Of a DNA stretch of 39,508 nt, positions 1 to 39,508 are shown one piece after another; position 1 is the stretch's first letter, and each line of letters opens with the position of its first letter. Source of the DNA: a virus (Duplodnaviria; Caudoviricetes); IMG/VR virus record IMGVR_UViG_3300017648_000003, positions 1 through 39,508 of that record; one strand, written 5' to 3'. Under the pieces are notes generated by a model that saw only the letters and a program-made list of their open reading frames with translations, did not search any database and was not told the DNA's origin. The position numbers and the translations under genes were made by a program.

Positions 1-123
1 GGCGTTTAGCCGCTCCGTTTCCGAGTCGGTCTCCGGCTCCGCCTTCGCGCGGTGGAAATCCGCGTCGGTCTTCACCGTCCTCCGCCGGGAGCGGGCCGCG
101 TCCGCCATCCCGCGAACGTCGAC
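1..123. repeat. Terminal direct repeat (circular-contig overlap), left copy
   Basis: Bases 1-123 are identical to 39386-39508, and an ORF reads in frame across the join. Confidence 0.95.
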
Positions 124-1038
124 CAGGTTGTAGCGGTTTTTGATCCACGCCTTCAGGAGCGTGAAGAGAAGCCCGACAGTACGGGCTTCTCCCCAGGCGA
201 TCGCGTAATCCAGAGTCGCGTCCAGCATGTCGAGCGCGGCGTCCTCGGCGGCGCCCGTCTTCTCACGCCAGTAGTCGACGTACCCGGCGAGCGTCTTGCC
301 GAGCGCCGGGGTGTCGTCCGCCGGGAATGCGGCGCGGGCCTTGGCCGTCAGCAGGGGGAGCGTGACGCGATCCGCGGGAGGGCGACGGATCGGTTCGAGG
401 TTCCGCCGCCAAGGATTCGTTGTGGGCGATTCTGGGGCCTTTGGCGCGGGCGGCGGTCCCGCGGGTTCCGGGGTCGGGAGCGAAGCGGAAAACGACAACG
501 ACGCCCCTCTGTCGTCTGTCGTCTTTTCTCTGTTTTCCTTATAGAGGGGGTCCGGGGGGGTGGTCATTTCTGACCTGCATAGTGGTCGCGGATGACCAAC
601 ATGGTGGTCATTTCTGACCTGCATAGTGGTCGCGGATGACCGCCCTGAATCCTCCGGAAACAGTGGGAGCTGGTCTTCAAATGACGGCTCGCGGGCGATC
701 CGAGGCCGGCCAGACAGGAGAGTAAACGCCATGCACGTCGCGCGGCGGCCAGCCAGCGCGGGAAGGCGGACCACATAGCCGGCGTCTTGGAGGTTCTTGT
801 AGGCCCGCTGTACTTTTGACACTGAACAGTGCAGGGATCGCGCTGTTTCCCGAAGGGTGGGAAATCGTTCCGGCGTTTTGCGGAGCCAGGAGGTGAGCCA
901 GCCGAGCAGCCTGACGGCGGCGTCGGAGAGCTGCGCGTCCTCCCACATGGGTTCCGGTGCCAACGTGAACGGCCAAGGCTCATCCAATGGCACCGGCGGA
1001 CGCTGGGCGCGGCGTGTGCGCAAAGCGAGCGACGACAT
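1..1038 (-). CDS. Replication initiator (N-terminal wHTH, lambda O-like organisation), 5' part; continues across the join to 38555, 622 aa in the circle
   Basis: Manual translation from ATG 1038 (MSSLALRT...LSDAAVRLLGWL...FPTLRETARSLHCSVSKVQRAYKNLQDAGYV) has no stop down to base 1 and is in frame with ORF 38555..39493; iterons lie mid-gene. Absent from the ORF track because it runs off the contig end. Confidence 0.8.
   Translation of the reverse strand, partial: MSSLALRTRRAQRPPVPLDEPWPFTLAPEPMWEDAQLSDAAVRLLGWLTSWLRKTPERFPTLRETARSLHCSVSKVQRAYKNLQDAGYVVRLPALAGRRATCMAFTLLSGRPRIAREPSFEDQLPLFPEDSGRSSATTMQVRNDHHVGHPRPLCRSEMTTPPDPLYKENREKTTDDRGASLSFSASLPTPEPAGPPPAPKAPESPTTNPWRRNLEPIRRPPADRVTLPLLTAKARAAFPADDTPALGKTLAGYVDYWREKTGAAEDAALDMLDATLDYAIAWGEARTVGLLFTLLKAWIKNRYNLVDVRGMADAARSRRRTVKTDADFHRAKAEPETDSETERLNA
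559..641. repeat. Iterons / probable replication origin
   Basis: Exact 39-bp direct repeat (559-597, 603-641) made of four 22-bp-spaced units, each with GGTC-N6-GACC dyad symmetry, inside the rep gene. Confidence 0.8.
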
Positions 1039-1055
1039 TGATTAGTTTCCTAGGC

Positions 1056-1092
1056 GCCGGTCGCGGGTCGCTCACTTTTGCAGGGTGGGACC
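1056..1092 (-). promoter_or_regulatory. rep leader stem-loop (loop CCUGCAAAA), putative antisense-RNA target
   Basis: GGTCCCAC-CCTGCAAAA-GTGAGCGACC lies about 20-55 nt upstream of the rep ATG; near-identical copy at 39237-39266. Confidence 0.65.
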
Positions 1093-1321
1093 GCTCGGGC
1101 GCGTAAACGGGTTTTTCGGTCTCAGGTCTCGGTTGCTTCCGCCCCAGGCCTTGCTGGGACGGTCGGTCTCATTGATACATCGTTGGGTCAAGACTAACAA
1201 GACTGGAGCCCCCCTCCCCTACCCTTTACCGGACCAGTCGGCGCGGAAAAGGCGACCGGGAGGCCCCGGCCCGCAAACTTTGGCGGGCCGGTTTTGCGGC
1301 CGGCGGCTTAGGTGGCCGATA

Positions 1322-2083
1322 TCAGCCACCTCCGCCCCAGCCCGGGGCCGGGTGGCGGGTCAGCTCGCGATACAACCAGTCGACCTGGTCGCGGTCGAGC
1401 TCGACGATCCGGCCCATGTTGTGTTGCTTCGCGAGCGACAAGAGCCGCTCATCGTGGCCGTGCTTCCGGCTCCAGCCCATCAGTTGCCGGCCGTCGGTCG
1501 GGGCGTCCGACCGCCCGCCCGACCGGGACGGGGGACCACCGGAGCCGTTGCGGCGCGGGGGCGGGCCGTCGTAGCCGTTGTGCTCTCCCCCGCCGCCGCG
1601 AACCGGCGGGGGTTCCGGCGCCGGGGCCGACCGGCCAGCCATTCGCGTGATTTGGGCTTCGGCCTCCGGGTGAGCGCGCTGCATCCGCTTGATTTGACCG
1701 CGGACCATCCGCTCCAGCGACCCGTACCAGATTCGCCCGTGCTGGATCAGGGCGTCCGGCGTCTTGACCAGATCGTCGTCGATTTCGATTTCCAGCTCCG
1801 CCCCCGCGCCGTCCGATCCGTAGCCGGGCGCCCCGACCTTCCGATGGATGCAAAGCTTGAGTTTCATCAGCTTCACCCGTTCCGTTCCCGTGTTCCGTTC
1901 TCCGGATCGACCGGCCCGTTGCCCACCGATCCACCGTTCCCCGCATTCCAGGCACTTCCACCGCGTGACCCAGCCGATTCGGCGGTCCTTATGCGGCGGC
2001 CGTTTGACCGCCTGGCCGGGGCAGGTTGACCCCGGCTGGCGATCCGAGTGTTTCCAGGGCCCGCGGGGGGCGTCAATCATCAT
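1322..2083 (-). CDS. Planctomycete-type conserved protein (KLKLCIHRKVGAPGYGSDGAGAELEIEID motif), possibly with an N-terminal Zn ribbon; alternative starts 1876/1867
   Basis: Motif resembles the RKVGxPxYGSxGAxxxLExEL family I recall from Planctomycetota mobile elements; ATG 2083 overlaps the upstream stop. Confidence 0.6.
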   Translation of the reverse strand: MMIDAPRGPWKHSDRQPGSTCPGQAVKRPPHKDRRIGWVTRWKCLECGERWIGGQRAGRSGERNTGTERVKLMKLKLCIHRKVGAPGYGSDGAGAELEIEIDDDLVKTPDALIQHGRIWYGSLERMVRGQIKRMQRAHPEAEAQITRMAGRSAPAPEPPPVRGGGGEHNGYDGPPPRRNGSGGPPSRSGGRSDAPTDGRQLMGWSRKHGHDERLLSLAKQHNMGRIVELDRDQVDWLYRELTRHPAPGWGGGG

Positions 2084-2507
2084 CCCGGTCCCGGTCCGAG
2101 CCGACGCGGGGGTCCTTGACCACCCGGACGGCCTCGACCGACCGGCGGGGCATGTCGCGGAACGAGCCCAACTCCCAGAGCTGATAGGCCGCGTCGTCGG
2201 CGAGCTCGTCATCAGGGCCGGTGGCGATTCGCAACGCGATGTTGATCAGATTCACCCGGGCCGGCCGCCAGGGGGCGGGGCTCGTCTCCGCCGGGGCGGT
2301 GATTGCCTCGAGCGCCGCCGCCGCCAGAATCGCGGCTTGGCCGCCCAGACGGTCGACCGCCTTGACCAACCGGCGAAGGTCGCGGGCCGCCTGGCAGCCG
2401 CGGCAGCGGCCGGAATCGCGGTCGGCGGCCGGTTCCTCCCGGCAATCCCGACAGGCGGGGACGGCGTCCGTGTTGGCGAAGAGCGGGGTTTGTAGTAGAG
2501 TGGACAT
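2073..2507 (-). CDS. Zn-finger (CxxC...CxxC) hypothetical protein
   Basis: CRDC/CRGC pairs; AAAGGAAAG RBS before ATG 2507. Confidence 0.7.
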   Translation of the reverse strand: MSTLLQTPLFANTDAVPACRDCREEPAADRDSGRCRGCQAARDLRRLVKAVDRLGGQAAILAAAALEAITAPAETSPAPWRPARVNLINIALRIATGPDDELADDAAYQLWELGSFRDMPRRSVEAVRVVKDPRVGSDRDRDDD

Positions 2508-2582
2508 TGTCTTTCCTTTCGCGTGAGGTGAGAGCGAGAGCACTCCAGGGCCTCGGACGGTGGCTGCCGTCCGGGGCCTTTT
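2508..2582 (+). ncRNA. Putative cis-antisense RNA covering the RBS of the 2073..2507 gene
   Basis: TTGGCG(2473)-17 bp-TAGAGT(2496) promoter; 12-bp hairpin 2549-2578 followed by TTTT. Confidence 0.55.
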
Positions 2583-2597
2583 CCATTTCCGGGCCGG

Positions 2598-2924
2598 TCA
2601 GGCCCCTTGGGCGAGCGCTCCGTGGTAGCCGGAGTCGAAGGCGACCAGCTCGTCGAAGTTCGGGAACCGGCCCAGCGTCGTCTCGATCGCCTCCAGGGCG
2701 GCGAGGCGGGTCGCGTTCTGCCAGCCGTAGGGCAGCCCACAGGCGGGGTCATTGGCCCGGTTCACCGCGTCGGCGCCCGCCCGCCAGCCGATCACTCGGA
2801 GGGCGTGGGCGATCTTCTCGGTCGGCACCTGGTCGCCGAACCGGCCGGCCAGGCTCAGCGTCGAATCGGCCAGGGCCTCGGCTTTGCGGTCGCGGGCAAC
2901 TCGGGGCATGGTGGCGGTCGTCAT
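2598..2924 (-). CDS. Hypothetical protein, first gene of the leftward early operon
   Basis: Protein-like ORF directly downstream of the promoter at 2968-2997. Confidence 0.65.
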   Translation of the reverse strand: MTTATMPRVARDRKAEALADSTLSLAGRFGDQVPTEKIAHALRVIGWRAGADAVNRANDPACGLPYGWQNATRLAALEAIETTLGRFPNFDELVAFDSGYHGALAQGA

Positions 2925-2967
2925 CGTCTGGGGCTCCGTGTTTGGGGTTCGTTTGACTGACGAGACC

Positions 2968-2997
2968 ATCTTACCGCCGTTGCTACTCAGTAGTCAA
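2968..2997 (-). promoter_or_regulatory. Leftward sigma70-type early promoter
   Basis: TTGACT-18 bp-TAAGAT; palindrome CTACT-C-AGTAG (2983-2993) overlaps the spacer. Confidence 0.65.
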
Positions 2998-3004
2998 TAC
3001 TCCT

Positions 3005-3022
3005 GTGAAGATTTTTCTTCAC
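3005..3022. promoter_or_regulatory. Operator-like inverted repeat between divergent promoters
   Basis: GTGAAGA-TTTT-TCTTCAC. Confidence 0.55.
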
Positions 3023-3024
3023 GG

Positions 3025-3053
3025 TTGCCGGTGTCAGTGGACAGCGGTATCAT
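3025..3053 (+). promoter_or_regulatory. Rightward sigma70-type promoter
   Basis: TTGCCG-17 bp-TATCAT upstream of the RHH gene. Confidence 0.6.
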
Positions 3054-3105
3054 TCTGGGTGGCGGCGGTAGATTCGGTTACAATCCCCACCGGAGCGCAT
3101 GACGA

Positions 3106-3351
3106 ATGACAGTTGCAATCCTGAGTCGGAAAATGGCCGAACCGAAAACAACCTCCGTGAAGCTGACAATGGAAGCCGTCGAGGCGGCTCGAATCGCGGC
3201 GGCGTTCCGTGGAAAGACCCTCTACGAATACGCCAGCGAGGTTCTTCTAGCGGCGGCAAACCGCGATATTGAAGAAGGCTACCGAGAGCGGCAGGCGGGC
3301 AGTCCGGCCCGGCCGAAGAAGGGCGGGAAGGGGAAAGTGGAATCGGGCTAA
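3106..3351 (+). CDS. Ribbon-helix-helix (Arc/Mnt/CopG-like) regulator, candidate repressor
   Basis: TTSVKL ribbon followed by two helices separated by G (AAAFRG-KTLYEYASEVL); divergent from the early operon. Confidence 0.7.
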   Translation: MTVAILSRKMAEPKTTSVKLTMEAVEAARIAAAFRGKTLYEYASEVLLAAANRDIEEGYRERQAGSPARPKKGGKGKVESG

Positions 3352-3463
3352 CCGCCACGCCGATTCAATGAACGGATGGCCATTTCGAACTTGAAGTCGC
3401 TGGTAGAATCGCGCATAATCCGTGCGCGTTTTGACAGGTTCTGCGGCTCCGAGGTCGAAATTT

Positions 3464-4093
3464 ATGTTCCAGACTGCCCTGTTCCCGGAAGTGGAAATCC
3501 CCGAAGAGGAGTTGAATCGGCGGCTTTCGCCCTACTACCCCAAGCTTTGGGATATTGTCAATCATCCCTTTGAGGATTTAAAACGGCGGCGGGCATCCGA
3601 CGCGGGTTTCAGGGTGCTGGACGAAGGCGAGTCCGCTCAATGGTTGCGACCCCAGATTATCGAACGCGCGAGGCACACCTTTCGCGACGATGATTCGGTG
3701 AGCGTTATCAAGAGGCGCAATCAGTATTACCTGGCCTTTGGCGACGACTTCTTGGTCGTTCCCAAAAAGCTGAGGCGCGAGCACTTAAGGAATCGTCTTA
3801 CCTTCAGCAGCTACAACACAAACCAGAACTCCAAGTTTTGGTTGCAGCAAGAAATCGAGGGCTTGCCTGATCTCCCCCGGTTGATCATTGGCTATCTGTT
3901 CATCCGGGAGATGACGGAAATTCAAACCTGGGTCGCCTACCCGCGTGGGAAGTCCGACGGCCTGTATATTCTGGTGCCGGATCAGGGAGGAGTCATCGGG
4001 CTTGCCGCGTCCGAAGTGGACGACGATCGGTTCGATGAAGACCTGGGGTTCCAGGTCAAGCCAAAGAGGAAGGCGTTGCCGGAAACGGGTTGA
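3464..4093 (+). CDS. Putative toxin of a RosmerTA-like pair
   Basis: KKL...FSSYNTNQNSKFWLQQEIEG...LIIGY pattern that I associate with genes upstream of XRE-M78 fusions; lower GC; 3 nt from the next gene. Confidence 0.55.
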   Translation: MFQTALFPEVEIPEEELNRRLSPYYPKLWDIVNHPFEDLKRRRASDAGFRVLDEGESAQWLRPQIIERARHTFRDDDSVSVIKRRNQYYLAFGDDFLVVPKKLRREHLRNRLTFSSYNTNQNSKFWLQQEIEGLPDLPRLIIGYLFIREMTEIQTWVAYPRGKSDGLYILVPDQGGVIGLAASEVDDDRFDEDLGFQVKPKRKALPETG

Positions 4094-4096
4094 GAC

Positions 4097-5146
4097 ATGA
4101 GGAAATTCAATTCCGATATGCTGGTGTTGGCGAGAGATCGCTTGGGGCTTTCGCAGTCCGCTCTCGCGAAGATGACCGGGATTGGACAGGCCAGGATCTC
4201 CCGATACGAGTCAGGAATGCTGGCTCCGCCGGGCGAGCATCTGGAGAAGTTCGCGCGGGCGCTTGACCGCCCGCTCTCCTTTTTTTTTCTGGGCGAGCGA
4301 GCCTACAACGCGAGCGCCACTTATCACCGAACGCGCAGGAGCCTCACGGTTGGAGAGGAACGCCAGATCCAGGCTCAAGTGAATGAGATGCGGATTCACG
4401 CATCGGTTCTACTTAATGAGGCCGAGATCGAGAGCCGCTACAGCTTTTACCGGCTGCCGCTGGATGACGGTGGGCCGGAGAAGGCGGCTCAGATCCTCAG
4501 GCGACTCTGGCAACTGCCGACCGGTCCGATCCGATCCGTGGTGGGCTCCATTGAACGGGCCGGCGGCCTGGTGTTTCGGTGCCCGTTCGACACCGACAAA
4601 ATCGACGGCGTTAGTCAATGGCCGCTGGATTCGGACCACGTTCCCCCGGTCCTGTTCGTCAGGGACGATGTTCCGGGCGATCGCCAGCGGTTCACGCTTG
4701 CCCATGAGATTGCCCACGTGGTTCTACATCATCTTCCGACCGACGATCCGGAGGGCGAGGCGGATCGGTTCGCCAGCGAGTTCCTCATGCCCGCCGAAGA
4801 AATCGAAACAGAGCTTTCGGGTCTTACGCTCAGAAAGGCGGCCGCCCTCAAGTGCTACTGGAAGGTGTCGATGGCCGCCATCATCCGGCGGGCGTTCGAC
4901 CTCGGGAAGATAACCGAGCGGCAGTATCGATACTTCAACGCCGAGCTTTCCCGCTTGGGGTATCGGAAGTGTGAACCGGCCCCAATACCGCCCGAAGAAC
5001 CTCGGATGCTGCAAGAGATCCTCAGGGTCCATCGCGTGTCGCACGGTCGAAGCACCGATGAGCTGAGCGAGCTGATGGGTTTGTACGCGGACCAGTTCAC
5101 GGGGATTTACGGCCATGACGGGCCGAGGCTTCGAATCGCCGGCTGA
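4097..5146 (+). CDS. XRE HTH plus ImmA/IrrE (M78) metallopeptidase fusion
   Basis: N-terminal HTH (LSQSALAKMTGIGQARISRYESG); RQRFTLAHEIAH and EADRFASEFLMP motifs. Confidence 0.92.
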   Translation: MRKFNSDMLVLARDRLGLSQSALAKMTGIGQARISRYESGMLAPPGEHLEKFARALDRPLSFFFLGERAYNASATYHRTRRSLTVGEERQIQAQVNEMRIHASVLLNEAEIESRYSFYRLPLDDGGPEKAAQILRRLWQLPTGPIRSVVGSIERAGGLVFRCPFDTDKIDGVSQWPLDSDHVPPVLFVRDDVPGDRQRFTLAHEIAHVVLHHLPTDDPEGEADRFASEFLMPAEEIETELSGLTLRKAAALKCYWKVSMAAIIRRAFDLGKITERQYRYFNAELSRLGYRKCEPAPIPPEEPRMLQEILRVHRVSHGRSTDELSELMGLYADQFTGIYGHDGPRLRIAG

Positions 5147-28379: not shown

Positions 28380-28426
28380 AAGTCCCCCCTTGCGCTTGTG
28401 TCCCCTCGGTCGCGCTTCGCGCGCGT

Positions 28427-28456
28427 CCTAGTCAGTAATGCCACATCTTTCCCGAT
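28427..28456 (+). repeat. Left inverted repeat of a putative invertible segment
   Basis: 17-bp core AGTAATGCCACATCTTT (28434-28450); 25/30 match to the reverse complement of 28900-28929. Confidence 0.85.
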
Positions 28457-28899: not shown

Positions 28900-28929
28900 A
28901 TCGACAAAGATGTGGCATTACTAGGTAGG
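28900..28929 (-). repeat. Right inverted repeat of a putative invertible segment
   Basis: Core AAAGATGTGGCATTACT at 28906-28922. Confidence 0.85.
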
Positions 28930-29123
28930 GAAAGCGCGCCGCGCCGGTCGGCGCGGCGCGCGCCCCGATCCCGCCCCCAAACCACCTCCCGAATTGCGTT
29001 GCCAGCCGGCGACGAACCGCCCGTCCGCCGCTCCCCGGAGCGTAGCCAGCCGGCGACGGCCCCGCCCGTCGCCAGTGGGCAACGCTTTTTCACGTCCGTC
29101 CGGTCAAAGAGAGGTTTCGAGCC

Positions 29124-33725: not shown

Positions 33726-33964
33726 GCCTTGCTCCTTTCGCGTCCCGTCTCACCCCCGATCTTATGCAGGTTGCCGCATGGGACGACGTACAGCCGCCCG
33801 TCCAGCTCGACGCCGTGATTGCGGGGCTTGCCCTTGCTCACGATCACGACCTTGACCAGCGCGTCTTGCAGGGGCGCGACCGAGGCGCGAGTCCCAATCC
33901 TCGCCAACATCACCCGGCTGTATCCGACGCGGACGATCTGGCCGGGGCGGGGATTGGCCATCAT
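33716..33964 (-). CDS. Small beta-rich (SH3-like) protein
   Basis: Coupled to both neighbours. Confidence 0.65.
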   Translation of the reverse strand: MMANPRPGQIVRVGYSRVMLARIGTRASVAPLQDALVKVVIVSKGKPRNHGVELDGRLYVVPCGNLHKIGGETGRERSKAWR

Positions 33965-35409
33965 CTCCCACCCCCGTCCTGAATCGCCCGGACCGACCCC
34001 GCCGGGTCGGCCGGATCGGCGTCCCCCACCGCGATCGACCCGTTGCCCATGTGCAGCGAAACCAGCCGCCCCCGGCTCGCCGACGGGTCGGCCTGGTCGC
34101 GGACGGTCCCGAAGTCCGCGACCCAGAAATGCAGCCAGGGCGGCCCGAACGGACTGGCCGCGGCGGTCGACCGGAAGCCGCGGGACTCGACCCGACCGTG
34201 GGCGTCGATCACCAGCTCGACCGCGCCGGTCCAGGGGTCGACGGGCAGCCGGGATCGGGGCCGGTCCCCCGCGGGCAGGTTCCAGCCGGTCGCGTCGATC
34301 ACGATCCCCGCCGGCAGCTCGACCGCGCCGGTGGACGCGGGGACCGGCCGACGGCGGATCGCGTACCGCTCGCCCCAGACCAGATCCCCGGGAACCGTGG
34401 CGCCCGTCGCCGGGTCGATCTTGCGCGGGCTCCGCTCGACCCCGACCCAGGTTTCAGGCTCCCATTCGTCGGCCTCGTCGGTCAGGCCGTCCAGATCGTT
34501 GTCGAGCCCATCGAACCCCTCATCCGTCAGCCCGTCGCGGTCGTCGTCGCGGCCGTTGACCAGGTAGAGGAATTCCAGCGGCCCGTCCCCCCGGTCGAGA
34601 GGGGAGGCCGCCCCCGGCTCCCCCCAATTGACGAACAGATCCGGGTTGCGGTCGCTCCCCCAGACGGTGGGGCCGACGACCGTGTACGTGGTCCCCCGGA
34701 ACTCCACTCGATCCCCCACCCGGACGTTCCACCACCAGTTCGTCGGGTTCGCGCGGATCCGGCCGTCCGGGGGAGCGCCGGGGCTCCGCATCCAAAACGA
34801 CTCCTCCAACACGAGCGGTCCCGCCGGCGGGTTGAACCCGGCCGGGTAGCGGTCGGTTTCGGGAATCCGGTTGGAGACGGCGGCCTTGCCCTCCAGGTAG
34901 CTCCCCGCGTCGGCGAGGGGGATCAGCCGCGAGTAAACCAGCGCCGCGTCCGGATCGATCCGGCCGTCGGCCAGCCGGCGGACCGGAAGGGCCGGATCGG
35001 GCTCCAGCCGGACCCCGGCCAGGGCCCCGCCGGCGGCCCGGTCGCGGGCGGCGACCAGGGCGACGTGCACGGCCTGCGCGCCGAGGGTGAGCCGGCGGTC
35101 GGCCAGCGAGTTGAAGACCGCCGGGATCGCCAGCGCGGCCACCAGGCCGACGATCAGGACGATCACCAGCAGCTCGACCAGCGTGAAGCCGGCCCGGCCC
35201 GACGCCGATGCCTTGGCCGAGCAGTCCGGGCAGACGTAGACCGTCCGGCCGTCCACCCGGGATTGCCGCCAGTCGGGCCAGACCTCCCGGGCCATCTCGG
35301 CGATCGACGACGCGGCCCAGCTCGTCTCCACGGCGAGCCCCGGAGACAGCTCGCCGCACCCGACGCATTGAATGTGGATTTCTCCACCGGCGCGCTTGGA
35401 TTCGCTCAC
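33961..35409 (-). CDS. Zn-ribbon plus type IV prepilin-like (N-methylation) protein with DxDxDG repeats
   Basis: CVGC...CPDC, then RAG|FTLVELLVIVLIVGLVAALAIP class III signal; NGRDDDRDGLTDEGFDGLDNDLDGLTDE; GTG 35409 overlaps the upstream stop. Confidence 0.85.
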   Translation of the reverse strand: MSESKRAGGEIHIQCVGCGELSPGLAVETSWAASSIAEMAREVWPDWRQSRVDGRTVYVCPDCSAKASASGRAGFTLVELLVIVLIVGLVAALAIPAVFNSLADRRLTLGAQAVHVALVAARDRAAGGALAGVRLEPDPALPVRRLADGRIDPDAALVYSRLIPLADAGSYLEGKAAVSNRIPETDRYPAGFNPPAGPLVLEESFWMRSPGAPPDGRIRANPTNWWWNVRVGDRVEFRGTTYTVVGPTVWGSDRNPDLFVNWGEPGAASPLDRGDGPLEFLYLVNGRDDDRDGLTDEGFDGLDNDLDGLTDEADEWEPETWVGVERSPRKIDPATGATVPGDLVWGERYAIRRRPVPASTGAVELPAGIVIDATGWNLPAGDRPRSRLPVDPWTGAVELVIDAHGRVESRGFRSTAAASPFGPPWLHFWVADFGTVRDQADPSASRGRLVSLHMGNGSIAVGDADPADPAGSVRAIQDGGGR

Positions 35410-35615
35410 AACCCACCCCCTTTCCAGGACGACAACCAAAGCTCCAGGTAGCCCGCCTCTTGCAAATAGGCGAGGTGGCCGTGGATCAGCAGGATGATCG
35501 CGAAGATCAGCAGCCCGGCCGCCCGCCGGGCCGGCAGCGGATCGCGCCGCCAGGGCCGCCAGCAGCCGAGCGGGACGAGGGCGGCGAGAGCCATGCAGAT
35601 ATGCAAAGTGATCAC
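35406..35615 (-). CDS. Small two-TM membrane protein (69 aa)
   Basis: GTGA-coupled; two hydrophobic segments. Confidence 0.6.
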   Translation of the reverse strand: MITLHICMALAALVPLGCWRPWRRDPLPARRAAGLLIFAIILLIHGHLAYLQEAGYLELWLSSWKGGGL

Positions 35616-37983: not shown

Positions 37984-38919
37984 TCAGGAAGAGCGGCGGA
38001 AGGCCACCTTGTCGGCCGCCGGGCGAAGGACCTCCACGTCCTCCTCGTCGTACCAGTCCTGCGTCCGCACGTTGGTGTGACGCAGCAGGGCCTTCAGCTC
38101 CAATTGGCTGAATCCCCAGGATTTTGCGTGGGTTCCGATCGTTTTTCGGAACGCGAGAATCGTCAGGTTGTCGACCCCGGCCCGCTTGCCCAGCTCCTTG
38201 ACCTGGTCGAGCGGTTTGGTGCCCGGGGCCCCCGAGGTCCACGGCGTCTTGAGCCGCTTGCCCGGGAACAGCCAGTTCGACCCACAGCGGGGGAGCCAGA
38301 GCCGGAGCACGTCCCGGAGCGGCGGGGCGATCGGCAGCTTCGCGGCCGACTTGACCGTCTTGGGGTGCCAGCATTCCTTGGGCTCGACCGTCAGGACCCG
38401 CCGCTCAAGATCCACGTTGTGGGCCTCCAAATGCAGGGCCTCCATCTTGCGGAGCCCGGCATACGCATAGACGTACACAAGCGCCTGCAACCGTCCCGCC
38501 TCCCAGGACCCCATCGCCGCCTCGGCGTCGGCCTGGTCGAGCACGCGGGCGATCTCATCCGAGCCCCGGTGGGTCGGCGCGGATCGGGCCGACTGTTTTT
38601 TGTCCGACCGGACCCACTGACCCGGGGGGCGGAACTCGAACGGGCTCGACCCGAGGAATCCCTTGCCGACCGCGAACTTCGCCGCCGTCGCCATGCACCG
38701 AAGGAGGCTGGCGACCCGAGCGGGGGAGCGGTCCTTGTGCCTCGCGACCCAGGCCGCCACCGCCTCCTCGGTCAGGGCCGCCGTGGTCCGAAAACCCGGC
38801 AGTTCGCCGAATTCCCGGAGAATCTGCCTTACCTGGCGATACGTCGCGGGCTCCCTCATCGGGGGCAGGTAAAGGCTCAAGTAACGGACGGTGAACGTGT
38901 CCCACGGAATTGGGCGCAT
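37984..38919 (-). CDS. int: Tyrosine integrase (311 aa, no evident arm-binding domain)
   Basis: GLRKMEA (R), PKT (K), LAFRKT (HxxR variant), LLRH, WYD (Y); adjacent to a tRNA-derived attP. Confidence 0.93.
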   Translation of the reverse strand: MRPIPWDTFTVRYLSLYLPPMREPATYRQVRQILREFGELPGFRTTAALTEEAVAAWVARHKDRSPARVASLLRCMATAAKFAVGKGFLGSSPFEFRPPGQWVRSDKKQSARSAPTHRGSDEIARVLDQADAEAAMGSWEAGRLQALVYVYAYAGLRKMEALHLEAHNVDLERRVLTVEPKECWHPKTVKSAAKLPIAPPLRDVLRLWLPRCGSNWLFPGKRLKTPWTSGAPGTKPLDQVKELGKRAGVDNLTILAFRKTIGTHAKSWGFSQLELKALLRHTNVRTQDWYDEEDVEVLRPAADKVAFRRSS

Positions 38920-39508
38920 GACTATTCCCCGCTTGCGGTTCCGTCGCTACAGTGGAGTCCGACCGGGGCAATGTAAGCCGCGAATGAGTCGCGGACTCTA
39001 TATCCGTGGGTTTTTCGCGCGGGGGATGCGCGGAGCATGCTTCGACTGATGGAATTTCGTGTAAAACAGGCCGGTCGGCGGGGGATGGGGGATTTAAGCG
39101 CGAGGACTTCGAATCCGAAGGTTGAAGGTTCGAATCCTTCCAGGCGCGCTGCGGGTTTCCGCCCGAGAATCCTTGCCGTGAATAACCGTTCACAGTAGGA
39201 TTCGACGGCGGGAGTTCGCATGCGGATTGGTTTCCGGCCGGTCGCGAGTCGCTTTTGCAGGGTGGGCTCGCGGCCGGTTCTTTTTGCGCGCCGGCCGCGC
39301 CGATCCGATCGAGGTCCGCCAGGGCCTCCAATCGTTCCCCCGCCCGGCTCGGCCGGGTCAGTCGTTTCAGCGCGGCCAGGGCCTCGGCGTTTAGCCGCTC
39401 CGTTTCCGAGTCGGTCTCCGGCTCCGCCTTCGCGCGGTGGAAATCCGCGTCGGTCTTCACCGTCCTCCGCCGGGAGCGGGCCGCGTCCGCCATCCCGCGA
39501 ACGTCGAC
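38555..39508 (-). CDS. Replication initiator, 3' part (reads through attP and overlaps int out of frame)
   Basis: In frame with the ORF from 1038 via the terminal repeat; first stop at 38555. Confidence 0.6.
   Translation of the reverse strand, partial: VDVRGMADAARSRRRTVKTDADFHRAKAEPETDSETERLNAEALAALKRLTRPSRAGERLEALADLDRIGAAGAQKEPAASPPCKSDSRPAGNQSACELPPSNPTVNGYSRQGFSGGNPQRAWKDSNLQPSDSKSSRLNPPSPADRPVLHEIPSVEACSAHPPREKPTDIESATHSRLTLPRSDSTVATEPQAGNSHAPNSVGHVHRPLLEPLPAPDEGARDVSPGKADSPGIRRTAGFSDHGGPDRGGGGGLGREAQGPLPRSGRQPPSVHGDGGEVRGRQGIPRVEPVRVPPPGSVGPVGQKTVGPIRADPPGLG
38922..39221 (-). CDS. Possible leader ORF spanning attP, ending 2 nt before the int ATG
   Basis: 99-codon ORF; no recognisable family. 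Confidence 0.3.
   Translation of the reverse strand: MRTPAVESYCERLFTARILGRKPAARLEGFEPSTFGFEVLALKSPIPRRPACFTRNSISRSMLRASPARKTHGYRVRDSFAAYIAPVGLHCSDGTASGE
39104..39148 (+). other. attP core: 3' half of tRNA-Arg(TCG)
   Basis: GGA-CTTCGAA-TCCGA anticodon arm, GAAGG-TTCGAAT-CCTTC T arm, CAGGCGC-G acceptor 3' strand; no D arm or 5' acceptor strand upstream. Confidence 0.9.
39208..39285 (+). ncRNA. Putative antisense sRNA (loop UUUUGCAGG)
   Basis: TTGCCG(39173)-17-TAGGAT(39196) promoter; hairpin 39238-39277 plus TTCTTTTT; matches the rep leader at 1056-1089. Confidence 0.7.
39386..39508. repeat. Terminal direct repeat, right copy
   Basis: Identical to 1-123. Confidence 0.95.

Follow-up and report, generated by a model that had tools for sequence, protein, structure and literature searches.

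A predicted antisense RNA at the attachment site of a family of temperate tailed phages and its putative target in the replication gene leader

The window, that is, the whole 39,508-nt stretch of DNA that was analysed, represents the circular genome of a temperate phage, 39,385 bp long, followed by a 123-nt terminal repeat. The genome encodes terminase, portal, capsid and tail proteins, a tyrosine integrase and, at 4097-5146, a repressor-like protein that joins an XRE repressor to a Peptidase_M78 domain of the IrrE/ImmA-like type. A Planctomycete is the probable host, judging by one NCBI-named integrase homologue (P0083); searches of viral contigs with rep or int as single protein gave no match, and a scan of a genome collection returned two distant Chloroflexota matches only. 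The genes and sites that define the region around the attachment site are the following.

1-1038, minus strand: 5' part of rep, an O-like replication initiator with an N-terminal winged helix (phrog_270, E 5e-4; PF13730, E 4e-6)
38555-39385, minus strand: rep frame continued over the circular join; it covers the sRNA gene and promoter as well as attP and reaches into int
559-641, no strand assigned: four 22-bp iteron-like repeats within rep, likely origin (repeat search)
37984-38919, minus strand: tyrosine integrase, marker of the phage family
39104-39150, plus strand: attP, the 3' half of tRNA-Arg(UCG), between rep and int (sample contigs, P0001)

In the circular form the rep frame is 622 aa long, and the repeats that it contains form a layout which we take to be lambda-O-like. 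The integrase gene and all the late genes lie on one strand, and attP sits between them and the early/rep operon, so that integration separates the two groups. In other parts of the genome, two 45-nt inverted arms (28412-28456 and 28900-28944; 76% complementary and AT-richer than the genome) surround 443 nt, and the segment 28412-28944 is possibly invertible or a small mobile element; a prepilin-type N-methylation motif is present in the ORF at 33961-35439, with a similar one in a related contig (L144, 4411-5670).

The attachment site was located from the junctions that it forms with the host. Contigs from soil samples carry the host tRNA 5' half joined ahead of 39104, and the database protein P0001 is this same Rep reading into the host tRNA 5' half, i.e., the prophage form. 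Taken together, these junctions and P0001 identify 39104-39150 as attP and place the sRNA region beside rep at attL, which supports the linkage of sRNA and rep in the prophage that had been proposed from a sequence-only reading of this DNA. That reading also placed the sRNA within the same ORF as rep, which holds for the window and eight relatives but not for the family as a whole. The rep frame is open through the sRNA, the promoter and attP in all six tRNA-Arg(UCG) loci whose sequence includes att (the window, L005, L006, L089, L090 and L093), and it is constant relative to the tRNA, though the distance from the tRNA to the stem takes all three phases. Among 30 Rep homologues, three further ones have the same tRNA-antisense frame and one has a different frame, and in the 12 loci with other tRNAs the rep frame does not cross att. 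Because stop-free windows of 77 codons account for 24–38% of the sequence of these tRNA-Arg(UCG) loci and the phages are related, the conservation of a rep frame through attP is suggestive and not proven; a peptide signature for the sRNA overlap matched 6 of the 30 Rep homologues and is too crude to use. If the frame is translated through attP, integration would swap the C-terminus of Rep, the residues after the att core being 82 and host-encoded in the prophage form (P0001) versus 182 in the circular form.

Some relatives show peculiarities in this region. In L005 and L093 the rep frame ends just a few bases from the start of the integrase gene, a hint that the two may be translationally coupled. 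In L089 rep appears as two overlapping ORFs (1723-3888), the second of which crosses attP, and a PAPS-reductase-like gene lies between attP and int. In L004 (1943-2018) ARAGORN reports a whole tRNA-Arg at attP, the 5' half of which is phage sequence.

On the plus strand, directly behind attP, lie the features of a predicted small RNA gene.

39150-39220, plus strand: extended inverted repeat that lies between attP and the start of the sRNA, with the promoter inside it (folding)
39173-39201, plus strand: predicted sigma-70-type sRNA promoter, 8/12, with a palindrome in its 17-nt spacer (own scan)
39208-39285, plus strand: predicted sRNA, 78 nt, from promoter to terminator, just behind attP (folding, own scans)

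The predicted RNA is made up of a 5' tail block (39225-39235), a stem (39236-39250 with 39265-39279), a loop region (39251-39264) and a U-rich end. The promoter and terminator that were claimed to bound this RNA are both predicted by our own scan, the promoter with a score that is matched or beaten by 0.7% of control windows and the terminator as a GC-rich stem of 15 bp that leads into a U-rich tail, but a stock promoter/terminator scanner run on the window listed neither. In the minimum-energy fold, G-U pairs close most of the loop and leave 3 nt (mean unpaired probability 0.35), so the 9-nt loop of the sRNA is one conformation and not the predicted optimum. The fold of 39150-39295 as a whole is more stable than expected (z -3.47; 0/200 shuffles as stable), and the inverted repeat over the promoter, which includes the palindromic spacer and is also there in several relatives, may serve as an operator or as a terminator of the rep transcript. 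As for known RNA families, an Rfam search of the window at E<=5 gave two chance-level matches only, away from the sRNA, and one of 16 family loci at gathering score gave tRNA matches only; the parallel with the P1 C4 and P4 CI RNAs, drawn from the sequence-only reading, finds no counterpart in the form of a C4/CI family match in Rfam.

Part of this element is repeated in the rep leader. Local alignment of 1056-1089 with 39237-39266 reproduces the near-identical repeat claimed earlier, with 29/30 matches and an indel of 4 nt. The true repeat-to-repeat distance, read from two metagenome contigs of this phage (L085 and L086) that cross the circular join, is 1200 nt, in agreement with the claimed spacing of about 1.2 kb. 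A further block, overlooked at that time, aligns the 5' tail of the RNA (39225-39235) with the ribosome-binding site of rep (1040-1050) at 10/11 positions. The three-block alignment reaches a total score of 49, compared with a maximum of 31 in 30 shuffles (255-nt query) and with 33 on the opposite strand. The exact 15-mer by itself is ordinary, given that 103 distinct 15-mers recur in this GC-rich genome; the unusual features are the three-block arrangement and its recurrence among relatives. The limits of the pairing blocks were taken from automatic alignment and are possibly a few bases short. Because both copies lie on the plus strand and rep on the minus strand, an RNA transcribed from the att copy on the plus strand is antisense to the rep leader, and the complementary sites there are two.

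1055-1102, minus strand: target site 1, stem-loop predicted in the rep leader, with 1076-1084 as its apical loop (alignment, folding)
1040-1050, minus strand: target site 2, in the Shine-Dalgarno region of rep, able to pair with the 5' tail of the sRNA (one G-U pair)

At site 1, leader positions 1056-1071 and 1075-1089 are complementary to the 5' stem arm and loop of the sRNA; site 2 stops 1 nt short of the rep ATG, and its tail score of 17 is equalled by 1.4% of random windows. The exposure of the complement in a leader loop, another of the earlier claims, is predicted with reservations: positions 1076-1084 form a 9-nt loop in the predicted folds of 1036-1110, 1030-1140 and 1036-1180, but the leader cut differently takes another minimum-energy fold, still with a 9-nt mostly unpaired run, and the hairpin is no more stable than shuffled sequences (z -1.17; 27/200 equally good). 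The leader fold rests on single-sequence predictions, since the leaders of the family align poorly and yielded no consensus structure. The cofolding gain of the window sRNA is 31 kcal/mol with its own leader versus a mean of 7 with 14 others.

Related loci were gathered in two ways, with a pattern for tRNA halves and by aligning 64 integrases, and 19 of them (the window and 18 relatives) were chosen by eye for a terminator-like hairpin behind the tRNA half, which in L142 lies at a prophage end. L085, L086, L088, L094 and L095 were left out as duplicates of the window or of members, and L011, L013 and L091 for having no DNA beyond att; L143 gave no convincing match. In L087, L092 and L096 the tRNA half is followed by unrelated DNA with no significant repeat, and the layout was not found in the distant-integrase loci L099, L101, L102, L108 and L109. 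Two of the four loci with the tRNA-Arg(UCG) pattern are members, and the other two (L001, L003) are outside the counts. The tRNA-Arg(CCG) pattern gave 31 loci, of which three are members (two duplicates and the new L135) and two are too short; L112, L125 and L131 beat shuffles without the family layout and 23 did not beat shuffles. The repeats of L112 and L125 lie behind the tRNA-Arg(CCG) half, and L112 has duplicated stems and a tandem unit. Integrase loci L021-L084, L097, L098, L100 and L103-L107 fall outside the analysis. Given that the integrases of the window and 14 members are 29–64% identical and that the att tRNAs differ, the member phages are not near-copies of one another.

The covariation of the two loops, which had been named as a check, is found in this set and supports the sequence-only reading: in 16 of the 19 loci the phage's own loop recurs on the same strand at a second site, 1.0–7.3 kb away and about 20–40 nt before a start codon, while the loops differ between phages. 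In 15 of the 19 the copy is on the same strand and 1.0–3.0 kb away, with at most 2 of 200 shuffles as good in each case. The sixteenth case, L012, has no copy in its first 4.4 kb, but in DNA added later a copy stands at a distance of 7.3 kb, accompanied by a tail match; its loop is 29 nt from an ATG and the gene behind it is a helicase/primase, which makes L012 a blind confirmation. As regards the other three, the contig of L090 stops 555 nt on, no loop copy was found in the parts of L014 that were searched, and L018 has an 18-nt exact copy, inverted, within a second integrase gene (L144 2995-3012, G007, versus L018 4589-4668), antisense to the mRNA of that integrase and with no tail match. 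Behind att in L009 / L122 there is, besides the loop copy, a strong opposite-strand match (score 74–83), i.e., an inverted repeat.

The specificity of these pairs was evaluated in several ways. As a fraction of the maximum, the loop match score is 0.84 for a phage's own target versus 0.27 for the targets of other phages; by cofolding gain the own leader ranks first in 13/15 and second in 2/15, and by whole-RNA duplex energy it is the best in 14/15, rankings that are partly circular because it was the loop that served to locate the targets. Independent of the loop search are the comparisons of flanking stems, tail, start codon, wobble pairs, sRNA promoters and terminator stem. In the unshared flanking stems, the 10 nt past the matched block are identical at just 1–6 positions, so that the repeat is not a recent duplication. 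A tail block is present within 42 nt beside the loop copy with p<=0.014 in 9/15 loci and, more weakly, with p 0.05–0.22 in the other 6/15. The start codon is 22–38 nt from the loop in 14/15, and L135 has instead an in-frame GTG inside the tail block. Transitions between the copies yield G-U pairs in 12 cases versus A-C in 4, in the sRNA:mRNA orientation (p 0.04; a modest bias), and the target loops of L005, L006, L015, L093 and L012 contain an A that the sRNA complement lacks, so that a bulge recurs on the same side of the duplex. A YUNR word occurs in 15/19 of the sRNA loop regions and YUUG in 10/19, counts that stand without a chance control.

Replication genes of unrelated types (O-like initiator, primase/helicase, DnaB-like) follow 14 of the 16 sites, seven directly and seven behind an ORF of 44–93 aa or an HNH gene, although many of the rep family matches are weak (E 1e-3 to 1e-9); the target genes of L005 and L010 had no family match, and neither did the short ORFs of six relatives in PHROG. 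On the RNA side, a promoter-like site of at least 8/12 precedes the sRNA in 13/18 loci versus 2.2% of controls, and the predicted RNAs are 64–109 nt long. The terminator stem covaries, with 83.7% of cells paired, two-sided changes in 8/12 pairs and 0/500 shuffles reaching the covariation score, in rows that were chosen for having a hairpin. A promoter of rep itself scores at least 8/12 in 6/14 relatives versus 4.3% of controls, and 5 in the window phage. Evidently, direct repeats change jointly across 16 phages, keep their position relative to a start codon and have replication genes behind them.

The notion that these repeats act as DNA, where the binding of proteins or recombination would loop or excise the rep cassette, is consistent with their flanking rep near attP, where sites for the integrase, the excisionase and Rep are expected in general. 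It is very improbable in view of sequences that are wholly different among phages with related integrases, a spacing of 1.0–7.3 kb, matches limited to the loop and tail of a promoter- and terminator-bounded hairpin, a fixed distance to the start codon and the G-U bias. The hairpin could also be no more than a terminator supplied by the phage to the restored host tRNA, the second copy being a neutral local duplication; it is indeed the first terminator-like structure past the tRNA in 17/18 loci, according to a crude scan. This account, which leaves unexplained the promoters proper to the hairpin, the unshared stems, the 16 lineage-specific loop copies at replication gene leaders and the case of L012, is hardly credible.

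It is proposed here, with a probability of about three in four, that the att-side element is an antisense RNA encoded in trans, whose loop pairs with that of the rep leader and which covers the ribosome-binding site there. An RNA of about 78 nt would be transcribed toward rep from the promoter at 39173-39201, and kissing between its loop and that of the rep leader would be the first step. The 5' tail would then be laid over the Shine-Dalgarno region and translation of rep would stop, the tail block on the ribosome-binding site being probably the contact that represses. In phages with a short ORF ahead of rep, translational coupling would pass the repression on, and in the window phage and a few others, in which the match extends down the 5' stem arm, a longer duplex may form.

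The same pair of RNAs might lead to a different outcome: premature termination of transcription or cleavage of the mRNA, in the manner of P4 CI, or opening of the leader with activation of translation in the manner of IsrK. According to PMC4825925, P4 CI acts on replication genes by terminating their transcription, and IsrK acts on a coupled leader ORF by activating it; in seven family members a short ORF or HNH gene lies right before the replication gene, and folding predicts partial pairing of the ribosome-binding site in several leaders. Such outcomes are nevertheless unlikely, as the tail is matched by the Shine-Dalgarno or start-codon region, which a duplex at that place would mask. In 15 loci no consistent intramolecular partner of the leader loop was found near a start codon, so that there is no pseudoknot pattern of the IncI type.

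With repression by loop pairing as the preferred reading, a likely purpose may be suggested: an sRNA kept beside rep at attL would prevent leaky Rep from firing the prophage origin within the chromosome. Induction would override the sRNA: the early mRNA, which is abundant, crosses the sRNA gene in antisense and, having a perfect full-length complement in the window phage, could soak up the RNA and set a threshold. Diverged loops would define phage-specific incompatibility or immunity groups, with possible exclusion of phages that have the same loop. RNA control of rep would be at most one layer, as the phage also encodes the XRE/Peptidase_M78 repressor-like protein.

Antisense RNAs that control plasmid replication are cis-encoded opposite the leader and hence fully complementary to it, and CopA reportedly acts through a leader peptide. 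The phage RNA, as predicted, resembles R1 CopA/CopT, RNAI/SLI of the I-complex plasmids and RNAII of pMV158 in being a hairpin RNA with a 5' tail and predicted loop-loop recognition of a stem-loop in the rep leader, and the target is likewise the leader of the replication initiator or its leader ORF (14/16 phage sites). It differs from the CopA/RNAI type in that its gene lies 1–7 kb from the leader (1200 nt, with a three-block partial match, in the window phage), so that the pair must change at two loci, and in that complementarity is confined to the loop, upper stem and tail and the carrier is an integrating tailed phage; unlike RNAI of the I-complex, it has no consistent leader-loop pseudoknot partner by the rep start in 15 loci. 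The CopA/CopT-type parallel drawn earlier thus fits the target, a replication gene leader, but not the position of the gene, which is not cis-encoded at that leader. According to two accounts, plasmid antisense RNAs have YUNR-type loops, block translation of rep or of a leader ORF, and set incompatibility through loop changes (PMC4485353, PMC10724649).

The predicted layout, with convergent transcription over direct repeats, dispersed complementarity that covers the translation start and RNAs that overlap at their 3' ends, is shared with RNA I/RNA II of pAD1 par and with SprA1/SprA1AS of S. aureus (PMC7472228, PMC4147584, PMC4825925). In contrast to pAD1 par and Fst, the target is a 622-aa initiator-like frame rather than a small hydrophobic toxin, and kissing is predicted at a leader loop copied kilobases away and not at a shared terminator. 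Among phage RNAs, P1/P7 C4 and P4 CI are also phage-encoded, trans-acting antisense RNAs (here predicted) with targets near the ribosome-binding site, and the specificity of this type gives heteroimmunity (PMC12197685); P4 CI silences the replication genes in the lysogen (PMC4825925). P4 CI is processed from the transcript that it controls and acts by termination, and C4 targets an antirepressor mRNA, whereas the sRNA described here would have an opposite-strand gene of its own at attP and a single-hairpin fold, with no Rfam match. Since the repeats are direct and not inverted, sRNA and target lie on opposite strands and, unlike in P4 CI, cannot belong to the same transcript. Finally, an attP inside an ORF with a C-terminus changed by integration is known from mycobacteriophage BPs (PMC4557955), where the gene is a repressor that loses a degradation tag; here it is a replication initiator that would be translated through attP. 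No description of the att-side antisense element was found in the literature searched, which included few subscription journals, an entry in a motif catalogue being possible. The family-wide RNA module, as predicted from these genomes, appears to be real and is apparently undescribed, and the function proposed for it is based on comparative evidence.

A tentative and rather doubtful extension connects the two consequences of integration. In a crude scan no hairpin-plus-U terminator lies between the tRNA and the sRNA stem in 17/18 loci, and transcription of the host tRNA could for this reason enter the sRNA in the lysogen. Integration might then switch replication doubly, with the sRNA produced as a 3' trailer of the host tRNA only in the lysogen and with the C-terminus of Rep swapped, which would amount to an integration-dependent, RNA-based immunity directed against the initiator, with 16 natural loop pairs that are mutually orthogonal.

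If the proposed reading is true, temperate phages run a plasmid-like incompatibility RNA on their replication gene, moved from the leader to the attachment site, and a prophage has plasmid-style RNA control of its replication. Since a change in the RNA then calls for a matching change in its target at another locus, the family amounts to a natural experiment on which parts of an antisense pair matter: complementarity is kept in the loop, upper stem and tail and lost in the lower stems, and the module persists after the replication gene has been swapped for an unrelated one. It would also add an RNA layer to prophage silencing and heteroimmunity, with a simple signature by which such systems may be found, and would provide a ready set of orthogonal translational repressors.
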